A DNA stretch of 64,000 nucleotides from an uncultured virus (IMG/VR IMGVR_UViG_3300029787_000026) (taxonomy: Duplodnaviria > Heunggongvirae > Uroviricota > Caudoviricetes > Crassvirales). The position numbers and the translations under genes were made by a program. Positions 13,472 through 59,903 of this stretch are shown here, in pieces (positions within the stretch are counted from its first letter, which is position 1; each line of letters begins with the position of its first letter). Under the pieces are notes generated by a model. The model did not search any database, had not been told where the DNA came from, and worked only from the letters and a program-made list of their open reading frames with translations. The stretch lies in IMG/VR virus record IMGVR_UViG_3300029787_000026. One strand, 5' to 3'.

Positions 13472-13473
13472 CT

Positions 13474-14277: not shown

Positions 14278-14288
14278 AAATTAAAATT

Positions 14289-14914: not shown

Positions 14915-14916
14915 AA

Positions 14917-15183
14917 ATGGCTAACAAATTTAAGAAATCTGATCTTGCGTGTAATAAGCCCAAGAAAACACCAAGCCACAAAACCAAGTCTCATATAGTT
15001 AAAGCTTGTAAAGATGGTAAAGAGAAGATAATTAGATTTGGCCAGCAAGGCGTGAGCACTGCTGGTAAAAAGAAAGACGCTAAATCAAAAGCAAGACGTA
15101 AAAGCTTTAAAGCTAGACACGCTAAGAATATTGCTAAAGGAGTATTTAGTGCAGCATATTGGGCTAACAAAGTAAAATGGTAA
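14917..15183 (+). CDS. Small basic conserved phage protein
   Basis: IIRFGQQG...RRKSFKARH...SAAYWA motif common in aquatic viruses. Confidence 0.7.
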   Translation: MANKFKKSDLACNKPKKTPSHKTKSHIVKACKDGKEKIIRFGQQGVSTAGKKKDAKSKARRKSFKARHAKNIAKGVFSAAYWANKVKW

Positions 15184-19063: not shown

Positions 19064-19277
19064 AATAAGAAAAATTAGCATAGGTTCTGAATACAAGGAT
19101 AATGCGATGCACTATTCAGTCGGTCAAGAGGTTTATGGAAACCATATCATAAGTGATATAATTAAAGACGAAGAAAACGCTTACAACATTTTTATAAAAA
19201 AGAACAACGAAGTATTACCGTGGAAAAAATTTAATTCTAACATGGCTATATCTGTTGAGTATGATTTACAATATTAA
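19041..19277 (+). CDS. Small hypothetical protein
   Basis: 78-aa ORF coupled to the next gene; start uncertain. Confidence 0.65.
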   Translation: MKKKVESKIRKISIGSEYKDNAMHYSVGQEVYGNHIISDIIKDEENAYNIFIKKNNEVLPWKKFNSNMAISVEYDLQY

Positions 19278-19882
19278 TGAAAAGTATTTGGAATTTTATC
19301 GTTAAACCGATAGGTGATCGATATGATAATTCTATAAAAGTAGAAGACAAAGACTTAATACTAAATAGTAGTATAGAAAAGTTTAAGTTTATAAATAGAA
19401 AAGCAGTTGTTATGAATGTACCAACAGCTTACAATACTGTTATAGAAGAGGGAGATGAGGTTATTATACATCACAATGTTTTTAGAAGATACTATAATGT
19501 TAAAGGTGAAGCTGTAGACAGTAGCAAGAAATTCAAAGAGGATATGTTTTTTTGTCAACCCGATCAAATATATCTTTATAAACGTGTTGTTAAATGGCAC
19601 TCGTTTGGTACTAGATGTTTTGTTATGCCTATTAAAAATAATAACAATCTAACGCTTGAAAAAGAGCAAAAGAATGTTGGTATACTTAAACACGGTAATA
19701 AGCTCTTAGAAGTGCAGGGAATAAACGAGGGAGATCTTGTTGGCTTTCCTAACAATCGTGAATTTGAGTTTATAATAAATAATCAACGATTATATTGTTT
19801 AGACGTTGATGACATTTTAATTAAATATGAATATAAAGGAAACGAAGAAGAGTATAATCCAAGCTGGGCAAAAAGCAGTTGA
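19277..19882 (+). CDS. Tandem GroES-like domain protein
   Basis: Two similar halves: FIVKPI...AVV..VP...IEEGDEVII and FVMPI...GIL..G...INEGDLVGF. Confidence 0.6.
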   Translation: MKSIWNFIVKPIGDRYDNSIKVEDKDLILNSSIEKFKFINRKAVVMNVPTAYNTVIEEGDEVIIHHNVFRRYYNVKGEAVDSSKKFKEDMFFCQPDQIYLYKRVVKWHSFGTRCFVMPIKNNNNLTLEKEQKNVGILKHGNKLLEVQGINEGDLVGFPNNREFEFIINNQRLYCLDVDDILIKYEYKGNEEEYNPSWAKSS

Positions 19883-24767: not shown

Positions 24768-25967
24768 ATGTCAGAACAAGTAAAACAAGAAGGTGAATTT
24801 AAAATTAAAACACCTAAAAAACCTAAAAACTTAGGTAAAATTGATAACGTAACTAAAGTAGATATACCTAACACAGCTCCAGAAGCTCAAGGTGAAGTTG
24901 TTCCTGAGGTTACAAAAGTTGAAATTAAAAAAGAAGACAATGCCGTTTCAGAGCCTAAAACAGATGAACTGGTTGAAAATAAACAAACCGGAGATATACC
25001 TGAAGTGGAAGAACAAGTACAAGAGCCCAGCGCGAATGTTGAGCTTCCGATCCAAGAAATAACAGAGGAACAGGTACAAGAAGAAACAAAAAAAGTAGAG
25101 CAAGAAGTAAAAGAAGCTATAAGAGATAATCAAGTAGCAGGAAAAGCTTTACCAGAAAATATTGAAAAGCTAGTTTCCTTTATGGAGGATACTGGTGGTA
25201 ATATAGAGGATTATGTTAGATTAAATGCTGACTACTCTAGTGTTGATAATACAACTTTAATTAGAGAGTATTATAAACAAACTAAACCTCATTTAGATCA
25301 TGAAGATGTAAGTCTTTTATTAGAAGACTTTGATTATGACGAAGAGGTTGACGAACCAAAAGAAATACGCAAGAAAAAAATTGCGTTTAAAGAAGAAGTT
25401 GCAAAAGCACAAGGCTTTTTAGAAAATGCAAAGAGTAAATATTACGACGAGATCAAGTTGAGACCGGGCGTTACTCAAGAGCAACAAAAAGCAATGGACT
25501 TTTTCAACCGCTATAATGAAGAAAAAGATATAGCAAACCGACAACATGAAGATTTTAAACATAATACTAAAAATCTATTTGGCGCAGAATTCAAAGGTTT
25601 TGATTTCAAACTAGGCCAAAAAATATTTAGATATAATGTTAAAAACCCTAATGCTGTTGCGGATAGACAGTCTAATGTTGCTAACACTATTGAGAAGTTT
25701 CTCGATAAAGAAGGCAACGTGGTAGATGTGACTGGTTATCACAAAGCTATATATGCTGCGGAAAATGCTGATACTATAGCAAGTCATTTCTATGAGCAAG
25801 GTAAAGCCGATGCTGTAAGGGATATGATGGCTAAATCCAAAAACATAGACCAAGAGCCTCGTAAAACTGCGAGTGGAGAGGTTTTTGTTAATGGAATAAA
25901 AGTAAAAGCACTAAGCGGTGTTGATTCTTCAAAATTAAAAATCAAAAAAGTAACAATTAAAAATTAA
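24768..25967 (+). CDS. Putative capsid scaffolding protein
   Basis: Acidic N-half, helical C-half; between portal and capsid genes. Confidence 0.65.
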   Translation: MSEQVKQEGEFKIKTPKKPKNLGKIDNVTKVDIPNTAPEAQGEVVPEVTKVEIKKEDNAVSEPKTDELVENKQTGDIPEVEEQVQEPSANVELPIQEITEEQVQEETKKVEQEVKEAIRDNQVAGKALPENIEKLVSFMEDTGGNIEDYVRLNADYSSVDNTTLIREYYKQTKPHLDHEDVSLLLEDFDYDEEVDEPKEIRKKKIAFKEEVAKAQGFLENAKSKYYDEIKLRPGVTQEQQKAMDFFNRYNEEKDIANRQHEDFKHNTKNLFGAEFKGFDFKLGQKIFRYNVKNPNAVADRQSNVANTIEKFLDKEGNVVDVTGYHKAIYAAENADTIASHFYEQGKADAVRDMMAKSKNIDQEPRKTASGEVFVNGIKVKALSGVDSSKLKIKKVTIKN

Positions 25968-30687: not shown

Positions 30688-33600
30688 ATGGCTGAAGTTA
30701 AAAATGCTTTTATAAAGTCTAAGATGAATAAAGACTTAGACGATCGATTGCTACCTAGCGGCGAGTACAGAGACGCTATAAATATAGCAATTAGTAGGTC
30801 AGAGGCTTCAGATGTTGGAGCTTTAGAAAATGTTATAGGTAATACTGCTTTAGTTGATTTTTGGCAGGACGTTGAAGACGATGTAACTTGTATAGGAACT
30901 TTTGTTTCAGAAGATAAAAATACTATATTTTTCTTTATGACAAGCAATAACGGCGAAGCATATGATCCAGGAGCAACTCAAGCTATAGTAAGTATAAATA
31001 CAGGTAGTGGAAGTAATCAATTAACTTTACATGTACAAGATGAGTTTCTTAATTTTTCAACATTATATCCTGTAATAGGTGTAAACTTATTAGAAAATTT
31101 ATTATTTTTTACAGATAATAGAAATCAACCTAGACGTATAGATATTACAAAACCAGATAATTATTATTTTAATGAAGATCAAGTTAGTGTTGCTTCTTAT
31201 AATCCTTATCAACCTATTGATCTTTGGCAACCTAGTGCTTTAGCTCCATCAGCTTCGGTTCCTTACGAAACAACAATGAAAGATGTTGTTAACGAATACT
31301 ATCCAGGTGGTGGTGGTGAGCTTACGCCAGTGGCGGATAATACAGGGGTTTCATTTAATGTTGACGGTGCGAGTGTGATAGGTAACCCGGTTGTAGGTGA
31401 TCAAGTAGAGTGGGCTAGTGATCAAGGTGTACCAACTACTATAATTGAAATTATACAACAAAATCCTTCTCCACCAGGTACACAGTTGTGGGCTATAATT
31501 ACAGATAACAGTAACGCACAGTGGTTTACAAATGAAGTTGTTACGTTCAATAAAAACCCTTATTTCAATATTGATTTTCAAGGTGATCCTGATTTCTTAC
31601 AAGATAAGTTTGTAAGGTTTAGTTATAGATTCCAGTTTGAAGACAACACGTATTCATTAATGGCTCCTTATACACAAGAAGCTTTTATACCAAAACAAGA
31701 TGGTTATTTTTTAAATGAAACAGAATTTGATGATCCAACAACGAGTGTAAACGAAGATCAAGAACAAGCATATAGAAGTACGGTTGTTGATTTTATGGAA
31801 AACAAAGTTAATCAAATAACTTTAAAAATTCCACTACCATCAATAGGACAAAATCTTATAAATAATTTTAAGATAAAAAATCTTCAAATATTATTTAAAG
31901 AATCTGATACACAAGCAATACAAGTTGTTGACACTATAGAGGCTACAAGAGTTGCTGCTGTTGCTGATGCAACCACGGTATTTACTTATGACTATAATTC
32001 TACAAAACCTTTTCAAACACTACCATCAAACGAAATAATTAGGGTTTACGATAAAATACCTGTAAAAGCCTTTGGTCAAGAAGTTATAAGTAATAGAATA
32101 GTTTACAGTAATTTTCAAACAAAGCATTCACCACCTGCTTCAATAGATTATAATGTTAATGTTTCTGAAAAACAAAATTTTGACGTTGAAGATATTATAG
32201 ACGGCACTAACTACCCAGTGCAATGGAAAACAAGTTATGTAGAATATCCTAATCATTCTTTAAAGCAAAATAGAAATTATCAAGTTGGTTTTGTTTTATC
32301 TGATAGATACGGTAGAACGTCTACTACTATATTATCTAATGATGGTACAGATTCTGCTGCTGGTTTATCCACTGTATATGTACCGTATAGAAACCCAAAT
32401 CAACCTCAAGGAGACGAGGTTGCTTCAGTGTGGCCAGGTGATTCTTTAAAAATTAATGTAAACAATATAATACCTACAGCACCAGTTTTAACTTCTGGTA
32501 ATTTTTATCCTGGTGTTTATAACGGTAACAAACAAAGTCCTGATTATAATCCATTAGGTTGGTATTCTTATAAAATTGTAGTAAAACAAAACGAACAAGA
32601 GTATTATAATGTATATTTACCTGGTATATTAAATGGTTATCCTCAGCAAAACTCCGCTGGTACTGATCCACCTCCACCATTTCCAACGGGTGAAGAAAAT
32701 TATACAGCCAATGTTGTATTAATAAATGATAATATAAATAAAGTACCAAGAGATTTATCGGAGGTAGGACCAGAACAAAAACAATTTAGAAGTTCCGTAA
32801 GATTATTTGGTAGAGTTACAAACCTACCAGTCACTCAACAAGGCCAAGCCGCTGTTACTCCAGCAACTGCTAACACTCAGTTTTACCCAGGTGTATTTGC
32901 TCATATTGTAAGTAATATAGCAACAACAGCTGATTCAAACATGGAATTTGAGACTTTAAGCGCTACTGGTCAAGAGAATTTATATCAAATAGACACAAAA
33001 CCTTTAATAGCTAGAATTACTACAACAAGAGGTGTTAATGATCCTATTAACATAGGTGTTGTAACAACCGGCTCTGGTGGATTAGGAATAATGACCCCTC
33101 AACTAGCTATATATGAGACAGAACCTAATATATCTAGATTAGACATATATTATGAAACTACTACATCAGGTTTAATTAGTGATTTAAATTTTGTTGTAGA
33201 AAACAATACAAGTATTGCAGCTGGCTTAGACAACTATAACTTCTTTTTAGAAGAAAGCGCAAGCTTAAATTATAGTGAAGCTACTGGTGCTCCTTTTACA
33301 GATCCAGCAGGTGCTGATATACCTATAAATCTTTACCCAGGTTTACAAGCTTTAGGAATATTTGCTTCTAGAGTACAAGGTTCTGCAAATAGAACTGCAA
33401 GATTTCCAAAAACAGACTGGCAAGGAAATGAAGACAGAATATTAAACACAGTACCTGTAGGAAATACAACTGGTTCACCTACAGTAACTAGTGTTGTTGA
33501 TGATGGTAACGCATACTTAGTAACAGTTGTTGGTGGTGCTTTCGGTACTCCTAACAGTGGTATACAAACTAAGTTTGTGGGTATATCATCTACCAACGCT

Positions 33601-35697
33601 AATGGTAATTTTGCTCCAGAAGATTCTGGTGGCACACCAATACCATATACTATTATAGCTACAGACGCTGCTGGTAATGATATTTTTAGCGCCGTTGATG
33701 GTTTAGGTAATGATGTTACTAATTATTTTCAATTAGTTAGAGTTAAGCATGGTGATATAATGCTTGATGGTAGTACAGGTAATCAACCTTATTCTTATGA
33801 TAGTTATTATATAGCAACTAAAGGACAGTATTTTTACAAAGATGGTTTTTCACCTAACGATGTAGCTAACACATATCAGTTTAGTTTTAGTGTTATAGAA
33901 GCAGATCAGTCTGGTATACCTGTTCCAGGAGCAACACCTTCATCATTTACAGTTAGTAATAATCAATTGACAAATGTTTCTTCTTTAATAGCAAATCCTT
34001 TTGCAACACGAAATTATTCTTTTCAAGAAGGTCAAGGCCCACCGACCAACGCACCTATGTATGATTTTATAGGGTACAATGGTTCAAATATAAATAATCA
34101 AACACAGCAAATACAAGGTGATTTAATGTATGAGCATGATTTGATTTGGAATCTTACTAGCGTACAAGTTGGTGGTCAAGCAGTACCTAACAGTCCGTTT
34201 GATATAACAAACTATCAAGATCCAACCACAGGAAAAAGATATGGTAGATTAACACAAGACGGAACAGCAATAGGTGCTTATGATTTAACAGTTACTTTAA
34301 CTGATTCTAATGGCAGTATAGACACGTCAACGTTTCAAGTTATATTTGGAGAAACACCTTTAACAGGTTCTTTAGGTTCTAATGGACAAGTATTCCAATT
34401 TGGTGTTGGTGAAGCTACTACAATATTTTTTACTGGTCCAATAAGCGCTGGAACCGCTTTTAGTCAAATGAATTTTGCAGACCAAGGTTTTGTGGCTATA
34501 CCACAAGCAGGGGCTACAGGTGGACCTCAATTTCCAGCAAGCCCAGCAGGTAACACCAATGGTTTTACAAGCAGTGAAGCGTGTGCTGATTGTAACGAAA
34601 CACCTGTCAACTGCAACACTACAACCTCAGCGTACAATCACAGCGTTTTTAGATTTGCTAGTGGATCTTTAGCCACAGGTTACACACTAACACAAGGTTT
34701 AGTAGATGGTACGGCTTATATAAATATTACTTTAATATCACAAAATACTAATACGTTTTGTAGTAACGATGGTGGATTTGGAAATGATGAGGGTATTAGT
34801 GGCCCAGCAAGCAATTTTAATTATCTGTATAGTTTTGGAAGTTTTAATATAGATTACAAACCTCAAAATGGAACTCAATGGCAACCAGCGGTAGATTTAA
34901 ATGGCGATTATACAGGGGCTATATCTCCTTCAAGTGTGCAGGCAAGTTATTCTAAAGGTGAGTGGAGAGTATCAGCTTTAAACACTGGCGATTGGATTTA
35001 TGGTCAATTATATTCAAATACTAACACGACTGCCGGCGGTGGTAGTTTAAACGGTGTTGGTATGTGGGAAACAAGAATTCCTACATTAACCTCAAACACG
35101 GGAACACCCTCATCTTGCTATGCGTCAAGAACATTCGCGTTTGATACGCCTGGTGATTATAGAATAGTAACTAATAACATGAACAATAACAACTGGAAAT
35201 GCAACACTCAGCTTTGTGGTCAAACTTCCGGTTTCGATAGCGGCAATTTAACGGCTGGTTTTCAAAACGGTTTTAAAGTTACATGGGGTGATTTTTATTA
35301 TGACTTTGGTAATCAAAGGGCGTTTGCATATAGAGTAAGTTTTCCTTCGTCTTCAGTCAATCCAAGTGCTGGAAATACAGTTGTGTATGCTAAAGAGCCT
35401 TTGTTTAGATATATTACACAGTTTTATACAGATACAGCTTTAACCATACCTAAGACTTGGAGTAACGGTGGAACAGTAAATGTAAGAACAGTTGGAAGTG
35501 GTGGCACTAATTTTGAAGAAGCTGGTAACTGGTCTAGTGGACAGCAACCCACAAATTATCCGTTTGAATTTGCTGGAAAAGGAGGAGGTAACCCAGGTAA
35601 TCAAAATCAACAAAATCAAGAGTTAAGACAATGGCTTATGGATGTAAGCGCAAATGGAACTGTAACCGCTGGCAGTCAAGTGCCTCGAACAAGTTAA
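30688..35697 (+). CDS. Tail nozzle/stabilisation protein N-part with long variable C-terminal extension
   Basis: MNKDLDDRLLPSGEYRDAINI start, LLFFTDNRNQPRRI, RFSYRF, NRIVYSN. Confidence 0.65.
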   Translation: MAEVKNAFIKSKMNKDLDDRLLPSGEYRDAINIAISRSEASDVGALENVIGNTALVDFWQDVEDDVTCIGTFVSEDKNTIFFFMTSNNGEAYDPGATQAIVSINTGSGSNQLTLHVQDEFLNFSTLYPVIGVNLLENLLFFTDNRNQPRRIDITKPDNYYFNEDQVSVASYNPYQPIDLWQPSALAPSASVPYETTMKDVVNEYYPGGGGELTPVADNTGVSFNVDGASVIGNPVVGDQVEWASDQGVPTTIIEIIQQNPSPPGTQLWAIITDNSNAQWFTNEVVTFNKNPYFNIDFQGDPDFLQDKFVRFSYRFQFEDNTYSLMAPYTQEAFIPKQDGYFLNETEFDDPTTSVNEDQEQAYRSTVVDFMENKVNQITLKIPLPSIGQNLINNFKIKNLQILFKESDTQAIQVVDTIEATRVAAVADATTVFTYDYNSTKPFQTLPSNEIIRVYDKIPVKAFGQEVISNRIVYSNFQTKHSPPASIDYNVNVSEKQNFDVEDIIDGTNYPVQWKTSYVEYPNHSLKQNRNYQVGFVLSDRYGRTSTTILSNDGTDSAAGLSTVYVPYRNPNQPQGDEVASVWPGDSLKINVNNIIPTAPVLTSGNFYPGVYNGNKQSPDYNPLGWYSYKIVVKQNEQEYYNVYLPGILNGYPQQNSAGTDPPPPFPTGEENYTANVVLINDNINKVPRDLSEVGPEQKQFRSSVRLFGRVTNLPVTQQGQAAVTPATANTQFYPGVFAHIVSNIATTADSNMEFETLSATGQENLYQIDTKPLIARITTTRGVNDPINIGVVTTGSGGLGIMTPQLAIYETEPNISRLDIYYETTTSGLISDLNFVVENNTSIAAGLDNYNFFLEESASLNYSEATGAPFTDPAGADIPINLYPGLQALGIFASRVQGSANRTARFPKTDWQGNEDRILNTVPVGNTTGSPTVTSVVDDGNAYLVTVVGGAFGTPNSGIQTKFVGISSTNANGNFAPEDSGGTPIPYTIIATDAAGNDIFSAVDGLGNDVTNYFQLVRVKHGDIMLDGSTGNQPYSYDSYYIATKGQYFYKDGFSPNDVANTYQFSFSVIEADQSGIPVPGATPSSFTVSNNQLTNVSSLIANPFATRNYSFQEGQGPPTNAPMYDFIGYNGSNINNQTQQIQGDLMYEHDLIWNLTSVQVGGQAVPNSPFDITNYQDPTTGKRYGRLTQDGTAIGAYDLTVTLTDSNGSIDTSTFQVIFGETPLTGSLGSNGQVFQFGVGEATTIFFTGPISAGTAFSQMNFADQGFVAIPQAGATGGPQFPASPAGNTNGFTSSEACADCNETPVNCNTTTSAYNHSVFRFASGSLATGYTLTQGLVDGTAYINITLISQNTNTFCSNDGGFGNDEGISGPASNFNYLYSFGSFNIDYKPQNGTQWQPAVDLNGDYTGAISPSSVQASYSKGEWRVSALNTGDWIYGQLYSNTNTTAGGGSLNGVGMWETRIPTLTSNTGTPSSCYASRTFAFDTPGDYRIVTNNMNNNNWKCNTQLCGQTSGFDSGNLTAGFQNGFKVTWGDFYYDFGNQRAFAYRVSFPSSSVNPSAGNTVVYAKEPLFRYITQFYTDTALTIPKTWSNGGTVNVRTVGSGGTNFEEAGNWSSGQQPTNYPFEFAGKGGGNPGNQNQQNQELRQWLMDVSANGTVTAGSQVPRTS

Positions 35698-35726: not shown

Positions 35727-37295
35727 ATGCCTGCGATAATAGAAGTAAAATACTTTAATACCTTCTTGTTAAAGAAAGTCAACGATTACGAACAAGGTAG
35801 CGGTGATGCATTAGAACCAGTTTGGGACGGTTCAAGAGGTATACCACAAGCTTTAGGTGGTTACCCTAGAATTAGTACTATAGGTTCAGATGCTTTTGAC
35901 TGGGCTATTGAAGAATCTAGAATTAGAGGTGGATATAATAACACGTCTGTATCACTAGGTGTAAAAGCTTATTTAGTTGAAAACGAACCGCTTGGCGCTA
36001 TTAGAGGTAATGCTATGATTTATTCTGGTATATATAATTCTAGAACAGGTATTAACGATACAAATGTATTTAGCGTTGGTGAAGAGATTACTAAAGCAGC
36101 TGATCCAGCAAACGGTAGTATACAAAAACTATATGCAGAAGATACTAACTTAATTATATTTCAAGAAAATAAAGTTAGTAGAGCTTTAATAGATAAAGAT
36201 GCTATATATACTGCAGAAGGTGGTGGTGTTCCTGTTAGTCAACTTAATTTAGTTATAGGTCAAATAGTTCCTTATGCTGGTAATTATGGTATTAGTAGAA
36301 ATCCAGAAAGCTTTGCTGTCTATGGTTATAGAAAGTACTTTGCAGATATGGATAGAAACGCTGTACTAAGGTTGTCAAGAGATGGTATAACAGAAATATC
36401 TAACTATGGTATGTTTGATTATTTTAGAGACAATCTAAGTAGTGTTAACGCTAACAACGCTCAGTTAGGAAAAGTTATTGGTGGTTGGGATATGTATCAA
36501 AAACAATATGTAATATCACTACAAGGATATAGTAATCCTACTCCTGGTTTACCTAATGATCCACCTAGATACCAAACATTAGCTTTTGACGAAACCGTTT
36601 TAGGTTGGACTAGTAGATTTACTTATAGACCAATTGAGATGTTTAGTTTGAAGGGTACTTTTTATTCTATTGGCTATGAGCAAGAACAACAAAGCGGTGG
36701 TAGTTATAAGGATACCGCGCCCACTTTATGGCAGCATAACTTAGGTCAAAGAGCTAATTTTTATAATAGACAGTATGACTCACAAATAACATTTATATTT
36801 AACCCTAAAGTTAGTTTATCTAAAAACTTTAAAACAGTTAATTATGAAGGAAGTAATGGTTGGGAAGTTTATGCTTTTCAAAGCGATGCTACTGGACCAG
36901 ATGAGTTTAATGATACTTACATTAACTACTTTGATGTTGTTGGTAATCCACCGGTTTACGTTCCAGCTGTTAGTAGTTTTTATGAGGGTGAATATGTAAT
37001 AAACCCGGCTGACGGACAAGCGGTAGATAGGTTAGATTATCTTAGTGTTTTTGGAACAGTTAATCCAGCATTACCAAGAGAGTATGCGGGGTTTGATAGA
37101 AAAGAAAATAAATACTACGCTAACTTAGTTAACGATACACAACCGTCTGAGGGTGAAATTGTTTTTGGTGCAGACATGACTGGAATAAAAGGATACTATT
37201 GTACGGTTGTAGTACAAACAGATCAATCCACAGATGTTGGTGGTGTAAAAGAATTATTTGCAGTCTCTTCAAACTATGTAGAGTCAGCCTATTAA
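35727..37295 (+). CDS. Tail nozzle/stabilisation protein C-part
   Basis: GSIQKL..LIIFQENKV, YGISRNPESFA, LRLSRDGITEIS..GM beta-propeller-like motifs. Confidence 0.65.
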   Translation: MPAIIEVKYFNTFLLKKVNDYEQGSGDALEPVWDGSRGIPQALGGYPRISTIGSDAFDWAIEESRIRGGYNNTSVSLGVKAYLVENEPLGAIRGNAMIYSGIYNSRTGINDTNVFSVGEEITKAADPANGSIQKLYAEDTNLIIFQENKVSRALIDKDAIYTAEGGGVPVSQLNLVIGQIVPYAGNYGISRNPESFAVYGYRKYFADMDRNAVLRLSRDGITEISNYGMFDYFRDNLSSVNANNAQLGKVIGGWDMYQKQYVISLQGYSNPTPGLPNDPPRYQTLAFDETVLGWTSRFTYRPIEMFSLKGTFYSIGYEQEQQSGGSYKDTAPTLWQHNLGQRANFYNRQYDSQITFIFNPKVSLSKNFKTVNYEGSNGWEVYAFQSDATGPDEFNDTYINYFDVVGNPPVYVPAVSSFYEGEYVINPADGQAVDRLDYLSVFGTVNPALPREYAGFDRKENKYYANLVNDTQPSEGEIVFGADMTGIKGYYCTVVVQTDQSTDVGGVKELFAVSSNYVESAY

Positions 37296-40272: not shown

Positions 40273-43200
40273 ATGGAAATATATGTAGATGAGTTTGGCA
40301 ACGAAACAACTGCTCAATCTTTAAGGCAAATGTTTGGAGATCAATGGGAAATTGAAGCAGCCAATCTAGGTTACTCAAAAAAAGCAGAAGGTGTTGTGGC
40401 AGAGGATGCAACTGTAACACCGATAACTCCGGTAGCATCCGAGAATACGGTATCAAGCTTGGAAAACTCTTCATTGGAGTTAGAAGATGAATGGGAGGTT
40501 ATAGTACCTGATCAAACCGAAGTTGTTATACCTAAAGATAGAAAGTTTGGTGATCTAATTGAAATACCAGACTTTGAAAATCAAAACACAAAAGACTTAG
40601 CTAACGTTTACAATACACTATATGGTGGTGAAAACGGTGGTTTTCATTTTGAAGCAGACGGTAAATACGGTTTAAATATTACAGCTTTAAATGGTAATGA
40701 AATAGGTGTAAAAACAGGTTTAACTAACATGGAAATAATGGGTAGCGGATTGTACACCCCTGAAACTGTAGAAATGAAAGATGCAGAGTCCATGATAAAC
40801 GAGTTTTTAAAACTTAACTTTGATAACGAGGCTCAAGAACAGTATAATACTAACATTGATGTTTTTGAGGAAGAGGTAATGTTGAACATTAATGATTTAA
40901 CAAGAAAGTTTTTAGAAGAAGAGGACTACGAGACAGACAACTTTATGCCTGTAAATGGATTATTAACTAGTACACTAAGTGCTGACTATGAAAAATTTAT
41001 TAGACAAAATGTGTCAGAGACTTATAAAGATAATGGTGGATACTTACCTGAGTATCAAATTACTCAAAACGTAAAAAGCATACTACAAGACGTGCAAAGT
41101 AATGAACTTCAACTTAACTACTTACTAAGATCTAAACAGTATGAAGAATTAAAAGACAGTGACAATGGTGATCTTGCTATAGAAGATTTAAAGGTTGGAC
41201 ACATACAAGAAATAGTTGATCCAGCAGAAAAAGAACTAGCGTCTATCAATATGGCTTTAATAAGTAAAGACATAATGTTAAATGAAAACTTTGCAAACTT
41301 AGGTTACAATGAGTCTATTAATTCATTAATGAATGATAGAAAAAAGCTAGAAGCTAGAAGAGATTTATTACAAAAAGAGGTTTTTGGTAAAAACACTAAA
41401 TTTTTATTTAACCTAGATAATGGTTCTTATAGAGTAACACCTGAATCAAAGGGTGGTTTAGTTGTTAAAAATGAAAAAGACTTAACAGAGCAATTTGGCG
41501 TAGCTAAAATACAGGTTAGAGAGATAATGAAAAATAACCCGTTTGCTACAGTTCAATCTAAGTATAATATATTTAATGTTGGGTTTGAAGATTTTCAAAG
41601 ACAAATGCAAGATGAAAAGTATGATATAACAATTAAAGCAAGCATGTTACAAGAAGGATCTCCTTTAGCTGAGAAGCTCAATAGCATGGGTTACAAAATT
41701 GAAACTAAATCATTTGGTAAGGATAAAGTAATTGAGGGCGGAGAAGGTGCTCCATATGTTACACAAGGAGTTGTAAAAGATGTTAGTCTAAAAGACTTAA
41801 TGTATTTAAAAAGAATTGAAACTTCTTTTTTAGGGCCCAACGCTTATCAAGAATTTGATAAAGCTGATAAGTCACAAAAACCTTTGGGTTATACGTTAGA
41901 TCAATATGTAGAAAACTCTAACGTAACATTGAATAGGTTATCTGTAATGCGTGAAGCTTGGAAACAGTTATACTTATTAAATGTAGATCCAGCTAGTATA
42001 GAGGCTAACAACCTAACACCTGATGGTACTGGTATAGAAAAGCTTTGGAAAAATAATTTTGTAGAAGGTTTAGCAGAGGCATTACCTTTTCAAGATCAAT
42101 CAAACTATGGTTATATAGCTAGTAACAAGTTTAATGTAGATACTGATAGAGATATATTAGATAGATTTCAAATGGTAATAGGCGATATAAACGCCAACCT
42201 ACAAGAAGGTGAAAAACCGTTTGAACTAACTAAAGAACAAGAAGAAAACTTTGAACAAGGTTTTGGCGAGGAGTTAGTTCGTGGCCTTGGTGGTTTTGTA
42301 CCTATGATTGCGGAGCTAGCGGCTATAACATATATGACTGGTGGTACTGGAAACTTTTTAGGTACTGGTAGATACTTAAATAAATTAAGAACTGTAACTT
42401 ATCTAGCTAAATCAGGTAAAAATAGCGTAACACCTTTATCACAAGCTGTTGTTGCGGCTAGAGCTAGAAAAGCAAAAATGACAGTAGATGCTTATGCTAA
42501 GTCAAAAGGTTTAACAAAAGCTAGTGGTGATGCTTTACAAAAACTACAAGCTTTAGGTATAATGGGTTTACAAGAAGAAGCTAAAATGGCTGCGCTAGAT
42601 CCTTTGTTTGGTGTAGATATGCCTGTGGGTGCTGGTTTTGGATTTGTAGTTGGTGGTGCTGGTATGAGAAAACTATTACCTACCGGGGTTTTTAAAGGCA
42701 ACTACGCTCCGTTAAATGTATTTTTAGATAAAGGTTTATACTCAGGGCTTGGTGGTATGGCTGGTGCTCAAACGGCGGCTCCAATGGAAGCTATGGTTCA
42801 ATCATTTATGAATCAAACAGACATGCAAACTTTTGCGGAAGAGAAGTATGGTAACATGGAAGACTGGGCTAAACATGCTTTAATGGAAACTATACAGTTT
42901 AGTTTAATTGGTTTAACACATACTAATAAAGCTGATCGTACAATGAGTATGAGAGGTAAAAGAGCGTTACAAGAAAAGCTAGCTGTTGATATAATAAAGA
43001 TGGAAAAACAAATAGGTGAAGGTAAATTATCTAAAACCGATCCTTTGTTTATAAATAAGTCTCAGCTGTTTGAACAAGTTAGTCAACAAATAAGAATATC
43101 AGAAAACAGAGAGAGATATTTAGATAAAAATATCTTAATGGCTGATACAAAATCTTTGTTTGAAAAATATAATAGACAATACAAGAGAGAAACTAAATCA

Positions 43201-46200
43201 GATCAACCTGCTTTTGATTTTAAATTAAATAAGTCTGGTAAAACAGAAGTTGTTTTTAGAGGCAGCAAACCACCTTTGGTTAGAGTTAATGTAAATAAAA
43301 TGACTCCTGGTACAGTACCACATGAGATATTTCACACGATGATGAAGCAACAATTCAAGAATGATGTTGGTTTATCTGGTTCTTTAGCTAGAAACATTTC
43401 GTCAACATTAAATAAAGTTGATTGGACCTTTGGTATTAAAAATGTAAAAGGTGGATTAAAGGGTGTTGTTGAACAAGCTTATGAAAATATACAAAACAAA
43501 GATAGCTTTAGTGAAGAGTTTAATGCAGCTGTTATAGATTTACTTAGATCACCTGAGAACTACGAAAAATTAATAACAGGTAATGTATTTGGTCAAATAG
43601 TACAAGACATATATGGTGCTGTAGAGAAAACATTAGGTAACACACCTATGAAAGGTTTATTACCTGACTTAAACACGCCACAAAAAGTAATAAACTTTTT
43701 AGGTAGATACGGAAAAAGTACAGCGGCGGGTGAGTATAGTCCTGGTATGATAGAGCGTTTTAAAGATATTAAAATACAAAAACAAAAAGATGGAAAAGTT
43801 TATGATCTTTTTGATACTCAGACAGGAGAAAAATTAAACCTAGATAAAGCTGCTCAAGAGCTTTTAAAAACTCAACAACAACGTAATAGAGAATTAGCAG
43901 AAAATATTAAAAACAAATCTGGTGATTACGGTAAAGATATTTATGATTTAATTAAAGATAATCAAGCTTTAATAAATCAATCTTTAGGTTTTAGTACTAA
44001 GCTAGGTGATGTACAGCAAAGTGCTATAACAGACGCTTTAGTATATCAAATGCTGGGTGTAGCAAAAGGTAGAAAGACTGGTATGCTAGATAACTATGAT
44101 GGTAGCACCGAGGTAATGACATATCTTGGTAATACGATCAGATCTCGTAGAAAAGAAATATACGAAGAAGCTGGGCTAGATATGACTAAACGTATCAACG
44201 AGGACATTAGTAATATTAGAGGTATTGCAGACACTGGAGGTTTTAAAGCTGAAAACTTAGATGCACCTAAACCAAAACCTAGAGTTAAGAAAACAGATCC
44301 TAGAGAATTAGATTTAACTATAGATGTTCAAAAAGATCTTATACCTGAAATGCAAAAGGATATAAGTAGTAGAGACATGTCTAAAGAAACTTATAAGTCT
44401 TTGCGTTTAACTGAAGCTGAGGCTAAGTTGCTTGCTGAAACATATGGTATAGTAGATTCAAAAGGTAATCCTTTAGCTGAATGGTTTACAAATCCAAAAC
44501 GTAACTTGCCTAAAGTTGCAATAGAAGGTTTCAGACAATTAAGATCGGATCTAAATAAAAACGCACAAGCTGTTTTAAATATAATACCAGAAGGATTTAC
44601 AGCTGGCGGTAAAGCAACAGGTGTACCAAACAACCTTAAAAAATTATTATATAGAAAAAATAATAACGGCAACTGGGAATTAAGAAAAGATCTTACTATA
44701 AAAGATATACAAAATATATTAAAAGAACCAGCGGGTGCTTTATATAGAGATGCACAAGTGCAAACTATAAAGGGTTTAACTGAATTAGTTTTTAGAGGAT
44801 TAAAAAACAAAGTAGCTAGAGAGGCTCAAGGTACAGGACCTGAATCTAACTCTGTTATTAGAGACTTAGCTGATGGTAAAAATCCACGCATGGCTCAAGT
44901 TATTTTAGATGCTCCTAATAAACCTAAGACTTTAAATAGTATAGAAAAAGTATTTACAGCTTTTGCTAACTACTCAAGAGATCCAGAAGGATTTAGAAAA
45001 CTTTATCCAGATGTTGCTAAGTTTATAGAAGCTGAATCTATTAAAATGTCTGAGGCAGAAGCTACTCGTGGTAAAGCTGAAGCACCTACGTTTAAAAAAG
45101 CTCCTAAAGCTGATATGAAAATAGCTGAAGCTAGTGGCGCACCAAAAGGTGTTAAGATAGAAAATATTATAGATGGAGTAACTGGTAAATCCATGCGTAG
45201 TGTTCAAGGTGATGTTGCTTTATTTGATGTAGCTAGAATAGAAGGTTTCTTTAAAAATATAGAAGACTTAGCAAAATATTATCCTAAAAATTTACCAGAC
45301 TTTTTAAAGACTAAAGAAACTTTATTACAATCATTTGGTAGTAGTAGTAGAGGTACTGGTAGAAATGTTGGTCGTGACGGTGCTAAAATAACTACAGAGG
45401 GTAATTTAATGTCAGAAAGCCCTGTTAGTAAAAATCAATATGAACGAATAGTTAAAAACCTTGGTGAAAAATATCAAGGTGAAATATTTGATAATATAAA
45501 ACCAGGAGACTTTATGACTGAGTCTCAACAAAAAAATGCTTTAAAAAATTATTTTGAAACTAACGATTTAAGCGCACTTAAAAAATACATAAATGCTAGT
45601 GACAACGCTTACAAGGCGGATGTATATTACGCTATGGGTGTTATTAAACAAAAGTATTTATATGATGCTAAAACACCAAAAGAGTTTGAAGCAAGAGCAA
45701 GAACTATATATGATTTAGCGGCAGCTAATTCTAGTACTATACAAGGTTATGGTAGACAATTAGTTCCTGTTATGGCTATTAAAAAAACAGGCACTGTTGG
45801 TAAACTAAAACTAGAGCATTTAAAATCTTCATTAGAACAATCTATGGCAGAAGCCAAAGCTATTGTAGAAGGTAGATGGGCTAAAGATGGTAGAAAAATA
45901 ATGAATGATTATCAGGGTATTATATCATTTAAAAAGTTTTTAAACGTTATAGATAAATTAGGTGGCACAACTAACACGGCTGGTTTGTCTCGTATGGTAT
46001 TAGATTTAAAAGAGTTAAAAGATTATGTAACTGTTGAGAGTGACTTTAAACAAACACTTTATGATAAGTTGATGCAGCAGAACGCGCAAAAACTAGGTCA
46101 ATCAGTTAGAAAACTAGAATCACCACAACTACAAGATGCTATGGCTAGGATGGGACTAGAGCCAAGCAAACCAAATGTTGAAATAGCTAAATATGAGTTA

Positions 46201-48855
46201 GCAAACCCTAAACAAACTAAACAGTCATACGAATCTAATAAAGCTTTAGCTAAAAAGTCAGGCACTTTATCTCAAGTTGATCTTAGTAAATCTGAATTAC
46301 TAAACAACATGTCTAACAGGGATAAAGCTTTAGCTTTAGCTAGAAGGTTAAAGAAAGAAACTAAGGGTATAAGTGTATACGATTTCGATGATACACTTGC
46401 TAAGTCTAAATCTAACGTGCTTTACACGCTCCCTAATGGTAAGAGAGGTAAACTTAATGCTACGGAGTTTGCTAAACGTTCAGAGGCCTTAGAAGCTCAA
46501 GGAGCAAAATTTGATTTTTCTGAGTTTAACAGAGTAATTGACGGGAAACCCGGGCCTCTAGTTCCTAGAATTAAAAAAGCTATAGGAAAATTTGGTAATG
46601 AAAATATGTTTGTGTTAACAGCAAGACCTCAAGCGTCAGCTAATGCTATTCATAAGTTTTTAAAAGGAATAGGTATTGACATACCTCTTAAAAATATTAC
46701 TGGTTTAGAAAACGGTAGCCCAACAGCAAAGTCAAATTGGATATTAGATAAAGCTGCTAAAGGTTATAATGATTTTTATTTTGTAGATGACGCTGTAAAA
46801 AACGTTAAAGCTGTTAAAGCTGTTTTAGATGTTATAGATGTTAAGAGTAAAGTTCAACTAGCTTTACAACAAGTTGATCTAAACAAAACGTTTAACGAAA
46901 TAATACAAAACAAATCAGGCATCGGCGCTGATAAAGTATTTGGTAGAGCAAAAGCTGAGGTTGTAGGTAGAGGTAAAGGTAAGTTTGATTACATCGTTTC
47001 TCCTGGTGCTGAAGATTTTATGGGATTACTTTATAAAACATTAGGTAAAGGTAAGGTAGGAGAAAAACAACAAGCATTTTATAAAAAATACTTAAATGAT
47101 CCTTTTGCTAAAGCAGAAGAAATGATTTCTAAAGATCAAGTTAAGCTAGCACAAGATATTAAAGCTTTGAAAAAGAGTTTAGGTGTTGTACCTAAAAACC
47201 TTAAAAAGACTAATGATACTGGCTTTACAAATGAAACAGCAGTAAGAGTTAGAATGTGGACTAAAATGGGACTTGAAGTTCCCGGGTTAAGTAAAGCAGA
47301 TTTAAAAGATTTAAATAAATTAGTTAAAGATAATCCTAAGCTTGAAGCGTTTGCAGATCAGTTATTATTAGCTACTAAAAACTCTGGTTGGGCACCACCT
47401 AAAGCTGATTGGCTTAGTGGTAACTTAACTTTAGATGCTAGAAATTTATTAAGAGATGTAAAGAGATCTGAATATCTAGAACAATATGGTTGGACAGAAA
47501 ATGTTAATCAAATATTTAGTGAAGCAAATTTAAATAAACTTGAAGCTGCTTTTGGTAAGAGTTATAGAAATGCTTTAGAAGGTACTATAGCTAGAATGAA
47601 GACTGGTAGAAATAGAAAAGTAAGAAACAATTTAGAAAATAAAGTACTTGACTATATTAATAATTCTGTAGGTGCTATCATGTTCTTAAACACTAGGTCC
47701 GCTGTGTTACAAACAATATCCTCTATTAACTTCGTTAACTGGACAGATAATAATCCCATGGCTGCTGGTAAGGCTTTAGCTAATATGCCTCAATATTCTA
47801 AAGACTTTTTAAAGCTAATGAATTCTGATTATCTTCTTTCTAGACGAAATGGTTTAAAATTAAATATATCAGAATCTGAAATAGCTGATGCTGGCGGTGG
47901 TAGAGGACTTATTAACTACATGTTAAATAAAGGTTTTGTATTTACAAGATACGCTGATAGTTTTGCTATTGCTAGTGGTGGTGCTACGTTTTATAGAAAT
48001 AGATTAAACACTTATAAGAAAAAAGGTTTATCTGAAAAAGAAGCAGAGGCAAGAGCTTTTAGGGATTTTAGAGAAATAGCTGAGAACTCCCAACAGTCAA
48101 GTAGAACTGATAAAATTAGTCAACAACAAGCTAGTGATTTAGGTAGGGTTATATTAGCTTTTGCTAACACACCTATGCAGTATATGAGAATACAAAAGAA
48201 AGCTTATTTGGATTTAGTAAACGGTAGGGGTAATTGGAAAACAAATGCTTCTAAAATAGTTTACTATGGATTTATACAAAACCTTATGTTCAACGCTATA
48301 CAAAACGCTATGTTTGGTATTGCGTTTGGTGATGATGAAACAGACGATAAGCTAATGGCTAAGTCTGGTAGAGTTGCTAATGGTATGGCTGACTCATTAT
48401 TAAGAGGTATGGGATTATACGGTGCTACAGCATCTATGGTTAAAAACACATTAATGAAAATAAAACAAATACAGGAAAAAGACGGGAAGAAAGCTTATGA
48501 TGCAGCGATATTTGAAGTGTTAAACGTATCACCTACAATAGGTTCAAAAGCAAGAAAATTAAGAAGCGCTGCTATATCCGCAGAGTATGGAGCGTTTGAT
48601 GACATGGAGTTTAGTTTAGATAACGAAGCTTATATGGCATTAGCAAATATAATATCTGCAACCACAAATGTACCTATGGACAGAGCTTTAAGAAAAGCTC
48701 AGAATATAGATGGAGCATTGTTTGACGATGTGGAAATGTGGCAAAGAATCTCTATGCTCATGGGTTACCAAGACTGGGAACTTGGTATAGGTAGAGATAC
48801 AACGGGGAATAAAAAGAAGAAAAAATCAGTCCAAAATATAGACGAATGGGAATAA
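40273..48855 (+). CDS. Giant multidomain ejection protein (zincin + sigma-like + unknown + HAD units)
   Basis: HEIFH at 43321; sigma region 1.2/2/4.1-like segments at 43861-44451; YDFDDT/LTAR/FVDD at 46378-46791; helical C-terminal region. Confidence 0.8.
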   Translation: MEIYVDEFGNETTAQSLRQMFGDQWEIEAANLGYSKKAEGVVAEDATVTPITPVASENTVSSLENSSLELEDEWEVIVPDQTEVVIPKDRKFGDLIEIPDFENQNTKDLANVYNTLYGGENGGFHFEADGKYGLNITALNGNEIGVKTGLTNMEIMGSGLYTPETVEMKDAESMINEFLKLNFDNEAQEQYNTNIDVFEEEVMLNINDLTRKFLEEEDYETDNFMPVNGLLTSTLSADYEKFIRQNVSETYKDNGGYLPEYQITQNVKSILQDVQSNELQLNYLLRSKQYEELKDSDNGDLAIEDLKVGHIQEIVDPAEKELASINMALISKDIMLNENFANLGYNESINSLMNDRKKLEARRDLLQKEVFGKNTKFLFNLDNGSYRVTPESKGGLVVKNEKDLTEQFGVAKIQVREIMKNNPFATVQSKYNIFNVGFEDFQRQMQDEKYDITIKASMLQEGSPLAEKLNSMGYKIETKSFGKDKVIEGGEGAPYVTQGVVKDVSLKDLMYLKRIETSFLGPNAYQEFDKADKSQKPLGYTLDQYVENSNVTLNRLSVMREAWKQLYLLNVDPASIEANNLTPDGTGIEKLWKNNFVEGLAEALPFQDQSNYGYIASNKFNVDTDRDILDRFQMVIGDINANLQEGEKPFELTKEQEENFEQGFGEELVRGLGGFVPMIAELAAITYMTGGTGNFLGTGRYLNKLRTVTYLAKSGKNSVTPLSQAVVAARARKAKMTVDAYAKSKGLTKASGDALQKLQALGIMGLQEEAKMAALDPLFGVDMPVGAGFGFVVGGAGMRKLLPTGVFKGNYAPLNVFLDKGLYSGLGGMAGAQTAAPMEAMVQSFMNQTDMQTFAEEKYGNMEDWAKHALMETIQFSLIGLTHTNKADRTMSMRGKRALQEKLAVDIIKMEKQIGEGKLSKTDPLFINKSQLFEQVSQQIRISENRERYLDKNILMADTKSLFEKYNRQYKRETKSDQPAFDFKLNKSGKTEVVFRGSKPPLVRVNVNKMTPGTVPHEIFHTMMKQQFKNDVGLSGSLARNISSTLNKVDWTFGIKNVKGGLKGVVEQAYENIQNKDSFSEEFNAAVIDLLRSPENYEKLITGNVFGQIVQDIYGAVEKTLGNTPMKGLLPDLNTPQKVINFLGRYGKSTAAGEYSPGMIERFKDIKIQKQKDGKVYDLFDTQTGEKLNLDKAAQELLKTQQQRNRELAENIKNKSGDYGKDIYDLIKDNQALINQSLGFSTKLGDVQQSAITDALVYQMLGVAKGRKTGMLDNYDGSTEVMTYLGNTIRSRRKEIYEEAGLDMTKRINEDISNIRGIADTGGFKAENLDAPKPKPRVKKTDPRELDLTIDVQKDLIPEMQKDISSRDMSKETYKSLRLTEAEAKLLAETYGIVDSKGNPLAEWFTNPKRNLPKVAIEGFRQLRSDLNKNAQAVLNIIPEGFTAGGKATGVPNNLKKLLYRKNNNGNWELRKDLTIKDIQNILKEPAGALYRDAQVQTIKGLTELVFRGLKNKVAREAQGTGPESNSVIRDLADGKNPRMAQVILDAPNKPKTLNSIEKVFTAFANYSRDPEGFRKLYPDVAKFIEAESIKMSEAEATRGKAEAPTFKKAPKADMKIAEASGAPKGVKIENIIDGVTGKSMRSVQGDVALFDVARIEGFFKNIEDLAKYYPKNLPDFLKTKETLLQSFGSSSRGTGRNVGRDGAKITTEGNLMSESPVSKNQYERIVKNLGEKYQGEIFDNIKPGDFMTESQQKNALKNYFETNDLSALKKYINASDNAYKADVYYAMGVIKQKYLYDAKTPKEFEARARTIYDLAAANSSTIQGYGRQLVPVMAIKKTGTVGKLKLEHLKSSLEQSMAEAKAIVEGRWAKDGRKIMNDYQGIISFKKFLNVIDKLGGTTNTAGLSRMVLDLKELKDYVTVESDFKQTLYDKLMQQNAQKLGQSVRKLESPQLQDAMARMGLEPSKPNVEIAKYELANPKQTKQSYESNKALAKKSGTLSQVDLSKSELLNNMSNRDKALALARRLKKETKGISVYDFDDTLAKSKSNVLYTLPNGKRGKLNATEFAKRSEALEAQGAKFDFSEFNRVIDGKPGPLVPRIKKAIGKFGNENMFVLTARPQASANAIHKFLKGIGIDIPLKNITGLENGSPTAKSNWILDKAAKGYNDFYFVDDAVKNVKAVKAVLDVIDVKSKVQLALQQVDLNKTFNEIIQNKSGIGADKVFGRAKAEVVGRGKGKFDYIVSPGAEDFMGLLYKTLGKGKVGEKQQAFYKKYLNDPFAKAEEMISKDQVKLAQDIKALKKSLGVVPKNLKKTNDTGFTNETAVRVRMWTKMGLEVPGLSKADLKDLNKLVKDNPKLEAFADQLLLATKNSGWAPPKADWLSGNLTLDARNLLRDVKRSEYLEQYGWTENVNQIFSEANLNKLEAAFGKSYRNALEGTIARMKTGRNRKVRNNLENKVLDYINNSVGAIMFLNTRSAVLQTISSINFVNWTDNNPMAAGKALANMPQYSKDFLKLMNSDYLLSRRNGLKLNISESEIADAGGGRGLINYMLNKGFVFTRYADSFAIASGGATFYRNRLNTYKKKGLSEKEAEARAFRDFREIAENSQQSSRTDKISQQQASDLGRVILAFANTPMQYMRIQKKAYLDLVNGRGNWKTNASKIVYYGFIQNLMFNAIQNAMFGIAFGDDETDDKLMAKSGRVANGMADSLLRGMGLYGATASMVKNTLMKIKQIQEKDGKKAYDAAIFEVLNVSPTIGSKARKLRSAAISAEYGAFDDMEFSLDNEAYMALANIISATTNVPMDRALRKAQNIDGALFDDVEMWQRISMLMGYQDWELGIGRDTTGNKKKKKSVQNIDEWE

Positions 48856-59147: not shown

Positions 59148-59903
59148 TTACAGATAGTCAAGCACTTGCGAGTGGTCGACCTCTTCAATCAGCTTGTTTA
59201 TAGCATCTTTTTTTAGCTCTGAAACGCGCACATAATTGCTTGTTCCATTGATATTTAATTTTGCTGCAATTTCTTTAGCTGAGTGTTTATCACAGTCTAA
59301 ACCATAACTTAATCTTAGTACTTCGTATTGTACGTGGTTTAAATGTTTCTTCAACAAACTTTTTAAGTATATGTTTAGAAAAGCAACGTTGTAAGGTTCT
59401 GACTTATCAGGAAGTTGTTGAACCATAGATTCACCTTCCTCATTCAATGGTTGAGCATCGATAGATAAAAATATACTATTAAAAAACATTTCAACCATTT
59501 TTTTATCTTTAGGATTTTTACGTATTTCATTCATTTTATGTTCTGGTATACGCATATTACCTCTATGTCGATCAATTCGTCTACGAATAGCCCCTTTGAT
59601 ACGTTTACTAAAAAATGATTTAAGAGTTTTTTCAATATCTTCAGAGTCAGTTAATTTATCCCACTCTAGTTTATCTACAGCTCTTGTTAAAGCTTCATTA
59701 CCTATTTGCAATAGATCTAGTATACTTAGTATACCTGAAGCTTGGTCTCCGGTTGAAAATTTTCTAGCCAAGTTTTCTACCAATGGCATAAACTTAACTA
59801 TCATCTCATCACGGGTGTAATAATCATAAAATTTTTCTTTAGGCATTGAAACTTTTAAATCTTCTTTATACCTAATGTAGTTTTGTATATTATATTTCCT
59901 CAT
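59148..59903 (-). CDS. Phage sigma-70 family factor
   Basis: Region 2 PLVENLARKF..DLLQIGNEALTRAVDK..RIKGAIRR..RIP; region 4 EVLRLSYGL..EIAAKL..RVSELKKDAINKL. Confidence 0.9.
   Translation of the reverse strand: MRKYNIQNYIRYKEDLKVSMPKEKFYDYYTRDEMIVKFMPLVENLARKFSTGDQASGILSILDLLQIGNEALTRAVDKLEWDKLTDSEDIEKTLKSFFSKRIKGAIRRRIDRHRGNMRIPEHKMNEIRKNPKDKKMVEMFFNSIFLSIDAQPLNEEGESMVQQLPDKSEPYNVAFLNIYLKSLLKKHLNHVQYEVLRLSYGLDCDKHSAKEIAAKLNINGTSNYVRVSELKKDAINKLIEEVDHSQVLDYL

Follow-up and report, generated by a model that had tools for sequence, protein, structure and literature searches.

Polyvalent proteins with zincin-like metallopeptidase domains are already known: they were described by Iyer, Burroughs, Anand, de Souza & Aravind (2017), who proposed that such proteins process themselves and release their units (PMC5512222). 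Here we describe a protein of this type from an uncultured virus, encoded in a stretch of 64,000 nucleotides of IMG/VR record IMGVR_UViG_3300029787_000026 (hereafter the window). The largest gene of this phage is a single open reading frame (ORF) of 2860 residues (319 kDa) at positions 40273–48855 on the + strand, and it encodes a multi-part protein in which four copies of a short motif bound a row of exchangeable units. Like the phage polyvalent proteins, it is a giant multi-domain protein that joins unrelated enzymatic units to one HExxH…E domain in a single polypeptide (zincin, HAD phosphatase and further units), its domain content differs among homologues, and its family includes HExxxH variants of the kind described for the metallopeptidases of polyvalent proteins (PMC5512222). 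It differs from them in that no model in Pfam, PHROG or NCBIfam matches it, whether from that collection or from another family, in its cargo (a HAD phosphatase and two uncharacterized units) and in showing a specific, repeated junction motif that co-varies with lineage. The main text of the 2017 paper (PMC5512222) contains neither ‘processing site’ nor ‘linker’, and ‘cleavage site’ appears in its reference list only; among the papers from 2018 on listed in a full-text search on such proteins, we found none that describes junction motifs. What is new here is a motif at every unit boundary with a lineage-dependent spelling, clear unit swaps between the copies of this motif, and an abundant marine family.

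Viral polyproteins, a translation strategy of RNA viruses, have an internal protease and a short consensus that is repeated at the unit boundaries and drifts with lineage; here, by contrast, the protein would be a delivery vehicle in a double-stranded DNA phage, and its cleavage is putative. Another giant protein with an internal HExxH metallopeptidase domain is the N4 virion RNA polymerase gp50 (Schitoviridae), which is packaged in the virion and ejected, as the present protein would be, and in both proteins the putative third-ligand Glu stands in an E-F-x-A context. Unlike gp50, however, the present protein lacks the DxDGD motif of RNA polymerases, and its C-terminal module shows no detectable similarity to the C-terminal region of the N4 enzyme (hhalign probability 0.04%); the N4 enzyme is, moreover, reported to be unprocessed (PMC5512222). 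The tape-measure-fused virion RNA polymerase gp96 of Thermus phage P23-45, as far as published descriptions allow the comparison, is also a giant virion protein that couples an early-infection enzyme to membrane and metallopeptidase domains, and metallopeptidase and transmembrane domains are said there to be characteristic of many tape measure proteins (PMC10770324); it differs in being the tape measure protein of a long-tailed phage and in carrying an RNA polymerase. A last comparison is with gp74 of Gundel_1, a cultured Tenacibaculum phage (Pachyviridae, MT732474; ORF at 5698–13146 of locus L076), which has 2482 residues, a single HEFGH at residue 1337, a His content of 0.48% and a flavobacterial host. 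Residues 2515–2692 of the giant ORF match gp74 only weakly (26.6% identity, E = 6e-6, tblastn), none of our unit profiles matches it, and its gene lies in a different neighbourhood, upstream of the portal gene. A lone zincin motif in a giant virion protein may be general among flavobacterial phages, to judge from these two sequences.

We read the protein as a polyvalent virion protein whose cargo is bounded by endopeptidase sites, with the embedded zincin as the likeliest protease, and we put the probability of this reading at about one half. The zincin is considered the likeliest protease because 173 of 180 family members have a zincin motif and the phage shows no other peptidase. The protein would be the virion-associated ‘polyvalent’ carrier of a marine, flavobacterial-type, short-tailed phage, with a constant frame made up of an N-terminal region, a hydrophobic region, one zincin-like domain and a universal 660-residue C-terminal module. 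This frame would bear a row of exchangeable cargo, namely unit A (possibly sigma-like), unit B and a HAD phosphatase. The motif that bounds the units (a small or aromatic residue, Ser or Gln, Lys or Arg, any residue, then Leu or Ile, with Val or Glu taking the place of Lys or Arg in this lineage) would be an endopeptidase recognition site, and the embedded zincin would most probably act on its own polypeptide. Pieces of about 134, 39, 51, 22 and 74 kDa would then result from cutting, which could take place in the capsid or follow ejection.

The original prediction, which concerned positions 43321–46887 (residues 1017–2205 of the giant ORF), had named four boundary motifs centred on Gln, and all four are present at the residues that it gave. 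They are KAAQ-ELLK at Q1195 (43846–43869, between the zincin domain and unit A), RMAQ-VILD at Q1542 (44887–44910, between units A and B), TLSQ-VDLSK at Q2001 (46264–46290, between unit B and the HAD unit) and ALQQ-VDLNK at Q2200 (46861–46887, between the HAD unit and the C-terminal module), numbered here as sites 1 to 4 and, like every part of the giant gene, on the + strand. The intervals between them (347, 459 and 199 residues long, with masses of 38.8, 51.1 and 21.9 kDa) agree with the predicted unit sizes and masses. The pattern Q[VE]xL occurs six times in the giant ORF, compared with 1.5 ± 1.2 times in 2000 shuffles; the two further occurrences, at residues 900 and 2289, were dropped as sites, relatives having no motif there. 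The narrower pattern [ASGQ]Q[VE][DIL]L, which was defined post hoc from the four sites, finds exactly these four in the giant ORF and none in 44 other ORFs of the window (15,138 residues).

An alignment of 17 homologues that share all of the units shows that a single motif stands in four copies at the Gln sites, and that each lineage has its own spelling of it. In the query clade, sites 1 to 4 read A[AG]Q-ELL, MAQ-VIL, LSQ-VDL and LQQ-VDL. The corresponding sites read AQ-KEL, AQ-[KLQ][IL][IL], [TD]S-K.. and AQ-KKL in relatives P0005–9; AQ-R[DE][IL] or QQ-RQL, AQ-[KR].L, a variable sequence and A[QS]-RNL in P0010–12; ASKDLF, ASKDI, GS[KR]DL and ASKDI in P0014/15; and AS-K[DE][IL], AS-K[IN]L, ASKDL and ASKDL in P0019/21/27. 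The residue after the Gln or Ser is basic in all clades except the query clade, where it is Val or Glu at all four sites, equivalent to four changes in parallel. Across the wider family the motif takes an FSK- or YSK-like form. The motifs are conserved in position in distant homologues and the idea of a repeated boundary motif holds, but the Gln itself does not, as the spelling belongs to the lineage and is Ser-Lys in most relatives. A few matches were set aside: AQKKL at about residue 2078 of P0008 and P0013 lies within a helix ahead of the HAD core and matches by chance, and the N-terminal ASK-type matches in P0021 and P0058 are not conserved.

The motif is also enriched across the family and concentrated at the junctions, by counts that are partly circular. 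The counts are 174 for [FY]S[KR] in 36 FSK-type proteins (63.5 expected) and 118 for A[SQ][KR][DKNE][LI] in 120 proteins (19.1 expected). In the 24 homologues that have all five units, the strict motif stands at 62 of the 96 junctions, and 62 of its 72 hits fall inside the junction windows, which make up 3.5% of the sequence length. Sites 3 and 4 resemble each other within a protein more than they do across proteins: for 38 cluster representatives out of 154 proteins, the within-protein similarity is 16.4, compared with 13.7 ± 0.5 for shuffled pairings, and none of 300 shuffles reached 16.4. At the DNA level the two sites share only 11 nt, and the repeat is therefore maintained in the protein sequence, not as a recombination repeat in the DNA.

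Homologues were expected to gain or lose units at the motifs, and units are indeed lost, replaced or moved between motif copies. In P0029 the zincin is kept and unit A has given way to about 400 unrelated residues, which are flanked by motifs at 1180 and 1584. Units A and B are both replaced in P0058, with motifs retained at 1269, 1670, 2201 and 2399, and in P0020 the N-terminal half is unrelated and unit A is replaced, with motifs at 1287, 1681, 2156 and 2354. P0071, P0081 and P0112 have no HAD unit and keep a single motif at the junction of unit B and the C-terminal module; in P0028 the HAD unit has moved to directly after the zincin and is followed by a motif at 1239; and in P0045 just a HAD remnant is left between two motifs. 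In P0013 (locus L003, 9839–17662) a Zeta-toxin/AAA_33 kinase-like domain is inserted within the HAD unit and not at a motif; one source names this insert dephospho-CoA kinase, and the P0013 ORF stops early, within the C-terminal module. Of the 287 internal homology breakpoints in 174 homologues, 92 are no more than 15 residues to either side of one of the four sites, compared with 12.8 expected; site 3 accounts for 67 of them, site 4 for 19, site 1 for four and site 2 for two. A search for shorter homologues, which would reveal stand-alone unit A or unit B genes, gave 15 matches, mostly fragments on short contigs, with no sign of split genes.

The zincin-like metallopeptidase domain covers residues ~940–1190 (43090–43842). 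Its candidate zinc-binding and catalytic motif, HEIFH at residues 1017–1021 (43321–43335), and the downstream EEF (from residue 1081; E1081–E1082 at 43513–43518), of which E1082 is the candidate third zinc ligand, are where the original prediction had placed them and form a conserved signature across the family. We pooled the listed proteins with the complete giant proteins of the retrieved loci, which gave 180 distinct sequences. A single HExxH is present in 167 of these, two are present in none and 13 have zero, in a family in which His makes up 0.42% of residues. Among the 167, E1082 is found in all, Y1070 in 150 and E1081 in 117; across 12 diverse homologues, G1013, H1017, E1018, H1021, E1081, E1082 and P1094 are invariant. 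Six of the 13 exceptions have HExxGH at the equivalent position, which brings the zincin motif to 173 of 180, and three are short proteins of 1609–1670 residues.

We modelled residues 905–1195 with AlphaFold2 from a 53-row alignment at 10–18% identity, and the model is of low confidence [mean predicted local distance difference test (pLDDT) 62]. In model numbering, an N-terminal helix (56–70) precedes strands 77–81 and 87–91, the HExxH lies on helix 110–124 and E1082 on helix 172–187, with pLDDT < 50 over residues 78–106. The layout given for metallopeptidases of polyvalent proteins is a three-stranded sheet, a helix with the HExxH and a later helix with the Glu (PMC5512222), and in our protein the invariant Glu comes 61 residues after the HExxH. 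Weak leads point in the same direction. The best structural match covering the core in an exhaustive VIA scan, the results of which came mostly from the N-terminal helical hairpin of the model, is the zinc endopeptidase PPEP-2 (6fpc_A; Z = 3.8, root-mean-square deviation 4.5, 133 residues aligned). An alignment to the N4 virion RNA polymerase metallopeptidase by hhalign covers 61 columns with the HExxH in register (probability 29%, E = 5.8e-4), and the nearest named ESM Atlas clusters are polyvalent-protein families, LPD23 (0.94) followed by LPD1, ART-PolyVal and MuF_C. A profile search of the PDB with this region returned no significant zincin. We take the HExxH region to be a real, very divergent zincin-like domain.

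A number of observations weigh against cutting at the motifs by this domain. Its fold is not confirmed by similarity searches: the model gave no Foldseek match, and Pfam matched no zincin family in the region at E ≤ 0.1 except ATLF and M90, each in single members. Four full-length proteins have neither HExxH nor HExxGH (P0067, P0120, L025 and L039), and the upstream ORFs of L025 and L039 also lack HExxH and HExxxH; L025 still shows FSK-type tripeptides. As for the motif itself, the patterns were taken from the sites and the sequences are akin, so that p-values overstate independence, and breakpoint clustering is strong at sites 3 and 4 only and weak at sites 1 and 2. The predicted setting of the sites is mixed. 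Site 1 falls in the low-confidence end of the zincin model (residues 286–291, that is 1190–1195 of the protein, with pLDDT < 50) and site 3 in a coil between two helices (model residues 33–41), whereas site 4 lies inside a predicted helix (229–251, pLDDT 54–64) and not in an open linker. Site 4 also stands in a conserved, indel-free stretch, and the indel density near sites 2 to 4 is ordinary. As modelled, the sites are constrained segments and not floppy spacers, which is compatible with a recognition site or with a structural role. Finally, the N4 virion RNA polymerase, with its metallopeptidase domain, is reported to be packaged unprocessed, and ArdC and TraC1 carry such domains yet are delivered at full length (PMC5512222).

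These last precedents, the helical, indel-free setting of site 4 and the position of the sites outside low-complexity or indel-rich linkers are what would be expected if the motif were not cut at all. It would then be a structural or module-boundary element, such as a helix cap or a docking segment, that serves folding and exchange; the protein would work intact, and the zincin would act on host targets or on the envelope, or would merely aid encapsidation or ejection. We regard this as rather unlikely, since parallel changes of spelling at four separate junctions within one lineage are not what one would expect of a pure structural element, nor is its persistence beside unrelated replacement units, and since the repeat is held at the protein level. 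The motifs might also be cut by a phage maturation protease or a host protease in place of the embedded zincin. The two loci devoid of HExxH and HExxxH, one of them still with its tripeptides, would fit this, as would an ORF at 24768–25967, between the portal and capsid genes, that has no annotation. However, Pfam scans found no peptidase family in the 45 other ORFs of the window that were scanned (the list of ORFs of at least 100 residues minus eight short overlapping ones), the motif is absent from the capsid and the other structural ORFs, and one zincin per protein in 173 of 180 members fits a function in cis; the motif is also absent from 10.4 kaa (thousand residues) of neighbouring ORFs in three relatives, a count of low power as only about 0.6 matches were expected. 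We consider a separate protease improbable. Very improbable, in our view, is that the HExxH region is not a peptidase but a structural metal site or another hydrolase, to which the repeated motif would be unrelated. The lack of a significant peptidase-family match by Pfam, PDB profile search or Foldseek and the low confidence of the model would agree with this; against it stand the HExxH and the invariant Glu 61 residues on, both on helices after strands, which is the zincin layout (PMC5512222), and the agreement of the weak leads to PPEP-2, the N4 metallopeptidase, ATLF and M90, and the polyvalent families of the ESM Atlas.

Our preferred reading, that of cargo bounded by endopeptidase sites and probably cut by the embedded zincin, can be carried further, albeit tentatively: the zincin and the junction motif may form a co-evolving protease–site pair and the giant protein a general cargo-cassette delivery system, a proposal that we find somewhat doubtful as it stands. 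Under such a scheme, any unit flanked by two copies of the motif would enter the virion, be ejected along with the DNA and be set free in the host as a separate basic protein. The cargo of the present protein would then be a pre-made sigma-like or DNA-binding factor (unit A), an enzyme (unit B) and a HAD phosphatase. The part of the protein that precedes the cargo (residues 1–1195) is acidic (isoelectric point, pI, 5.0), whereas units A and B, the HAD unit and the C-terminal module are all basic (pI 9.3–9.8).

Unit A (residues 1196–1542, 43858–44898; 38.8 kDa, pI 9.3) occupies a swappable slot, its identity is uncertain and Pfam has no match to it. The original prediction called it sigma-like, a label that finds no support in Pfam or profile searches: Sigma70 models gave no Pfam match at E ≤ 5 for the query or at E ≤ 1 in eight unit A homologues, and hhalign gave a probability of 0.5% against the sigma-like ORF of the window itself. 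The label rests on a weak ESM Atlas lead, in which Sigma70_r2 clusters appear at 0.90–0.91 with few shared features (107–129). The unit A profile also matches histone H2B in the PDB over profile positions 247–319 (residues ~1435–1507; 6m2m_D, E = 0.0048), and a tandem histone construct (8grq_D, E = 1.6e-5) is a further weak lead. The histone-fold and Sigma70_r2 leads conflict, and both are leads only.

Unit B (residues 1543–2001, 44899–46275; 51.1 kDa, pI 9.4) has no PDB profile, Pfam or NCBIfam match. It contains an invariant K-x-E-H-x-K-x-S-x-x-Q-S block at residues 1846–1857 together with many further invariant polar residues, and is possibly an uncharacterized enzyme.

The HAD-superfamily phosphatase-like unit (residues 2002–2200, 46276–46872; 21.9 kDa) was also part of the original prediction, and is borne out by its catalytic motifs and modelled fold. 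Among 12 homologues D2037-x-D2039 and D2173 are invariant and T2041, T2116 and D2172 nearly so; all six are invariant in a 34-row alignment, and the motif III Lys, K2153, is invariant or nearly so. In the AlphaFold2 model of residues 1965–2260 the HAD core has a pLDDT of 80–95. Foldseek ranks class C acid phosphatases, e(P4), T4 PNK phosphatase and HAD hydrolases highest for this model, at E-values from 2.2e-3 (none ≤ 1e-3) and probabilities of 0.99–1.0 for the acid phosphatases and 0.92–0.96 for T4 PNK phosphatase and the HAD hydrolases. The unit stays under the curated cut-offs of PF00702 (14.6 bits versus 26.4, E = 0.045) and TIGR01509 (18.4 versus 29.4, E = 0.0019). By its motifs and its model it is a divergent HAD-superfamily phosphatase that belongs to no named family.

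The protein belongs to an abundant new marine family of phage ‘polyvalent’ proteins that neither Pfam nor PHROGs nor NCBIfam covers. Of 8,000 candidates scored in a word-indexed search, 1,989 are relatives at E ≤ 0.001, mostly from marine metagenomes; in IMG/VR a relative is encoded in 650 of 670 candidate stretches, and 75 loci were retrieved for comparison. Scans of the whole protein with Pfam and PHROG gave no usable match, and NCBIfam on six sub-parts gave a sub-threshold HAD match and nothing else. By BLAST the universal core spans residues ~2000–2840, covered by 108–117 of 119 subjects (116 of them cover the C-terminal module), and the first 2000 residues are variable, covered by 7–44 of 119. 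Seven segment hidden Markov models (HMMs), made from 17 close homologues and run on 120 proteins, likewise found the C-terminal module in all 120 and the HAD unit in 116; unit B was found in 44, the hydrophobic region in 41, the zincin and unit A in 39 each, and the N-terminal region in 27.

Three parts of the constant frame remain to be described. The acidic N-terminal region (residues 1–640, 40273–42192) is seen in closer relatives only and has no Pfam or NCBIfam match. It is followed by a Gly-rich hydrophobic region (residues 641–900, 42193–42972) with membrane-like segments at residues 668–686 and 778–796 on the Kyte–Doolittle scale. At the other end, the C-terminal module (residues 2201–2860, 46873–48852; 73.8 kDa) defines the family, carries the FANTPMQ block and has no PDB profile, Pfam or NCBIfam match. 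Two relatives (alignment rows 25 and 36) match Pfam TMP_2, with a best E-value of 3.7e-5, within the stretch surrounding their HExxH. At locus L004 the giant gene is found in two overlapping ORFs (6300–10373 and 10330–15027); the break lies within unit A and not at a junction motif, and probably reflects a frameshift or misassembly.

The window covers most of one phage genome, and the cluster to which the protein belongs is on a 65.9-kb contig. By PHROG and Pfam scans, the genes upstream of the giant ORF on the same strand include GroEL, an amidase, a GroES-like gene, the large terminase, the portal and several PHROG ‘virion structural’ families; those downstream, on the opposite strand, include ribonucleotide reductase, thymidylate synthase, primase, ERF, ligase and an ORF with a weak sigma-70 region 2. 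The nearest terminase is that of an uncultured Caudoviricetes record (62.7%); among named phages the nearest are short-tailed Flavobacterium phages, with Cellulophaga phages weaker. The giant ORF is the terminal gene of the rightward virion-structure block. In short-tailed phages the end of the structural block is the usual place of the genes for internal and ejection proteins, and from this position the giant protein would be packaged in the virion and ejected. The weak match to Gundel_1 gp74, which was deposited as a ‘structural protein’, is a second hint of a virion role.

The window ORFs that were scanned include no phage RNA polymerase, and the phage therefore probably redirects the host RNA polymerase; the sigma-like ORF (59148–59903, − strand) matches Sigma70 region 2 at E = 2.2e-4, under the cut-off. 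The phage encodes both GroEL (Cpn60, E = 1.4e-57; 10709–12262, +) and the GroES-like co-chaperonin (19277–19882, +). Its portal gene is apparently split into overlapping ORFs at 22304–24007 and 23988–24740 (+), which match one PHROG portal profile of 827 positions over 3–575 and 621–823, respectively; a frameshift, a sequencing error or a true split could each account for it. Two further ORFs on the + strand, at 30688–35697 (1669 residues) and 35727–37295 (522 residues), match separate parts of phrog_14478 (1–176 and 927–1205, respectively), and the 522-residue ORF contains the crassvirus muzzle C-terminal Pfam domain (E = 6.4e-10), a match that points to a tail muzzle of the crAss-like kind in this flavobacterial-type phage.

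If the motif proves not to be cleaved, it is still an unexplained, strongly constrained junction element. The 2017 proposal of self-cutting polyvalent proteins, as far as its text shows, came without cutting sites (PMC5512222), and the present family offers explicit ones that can be tested. If these sites are real, the sequence alone could show where cargo units begin and end, which could bring to light new early-infection effectors in uncultured marine phages. If the giant protein is a cassette system, a double-stranded DNA phage would be using a polyprotein strategy for delivery, and its sites would be legible in the sequences of thousands of marine phage genomes.

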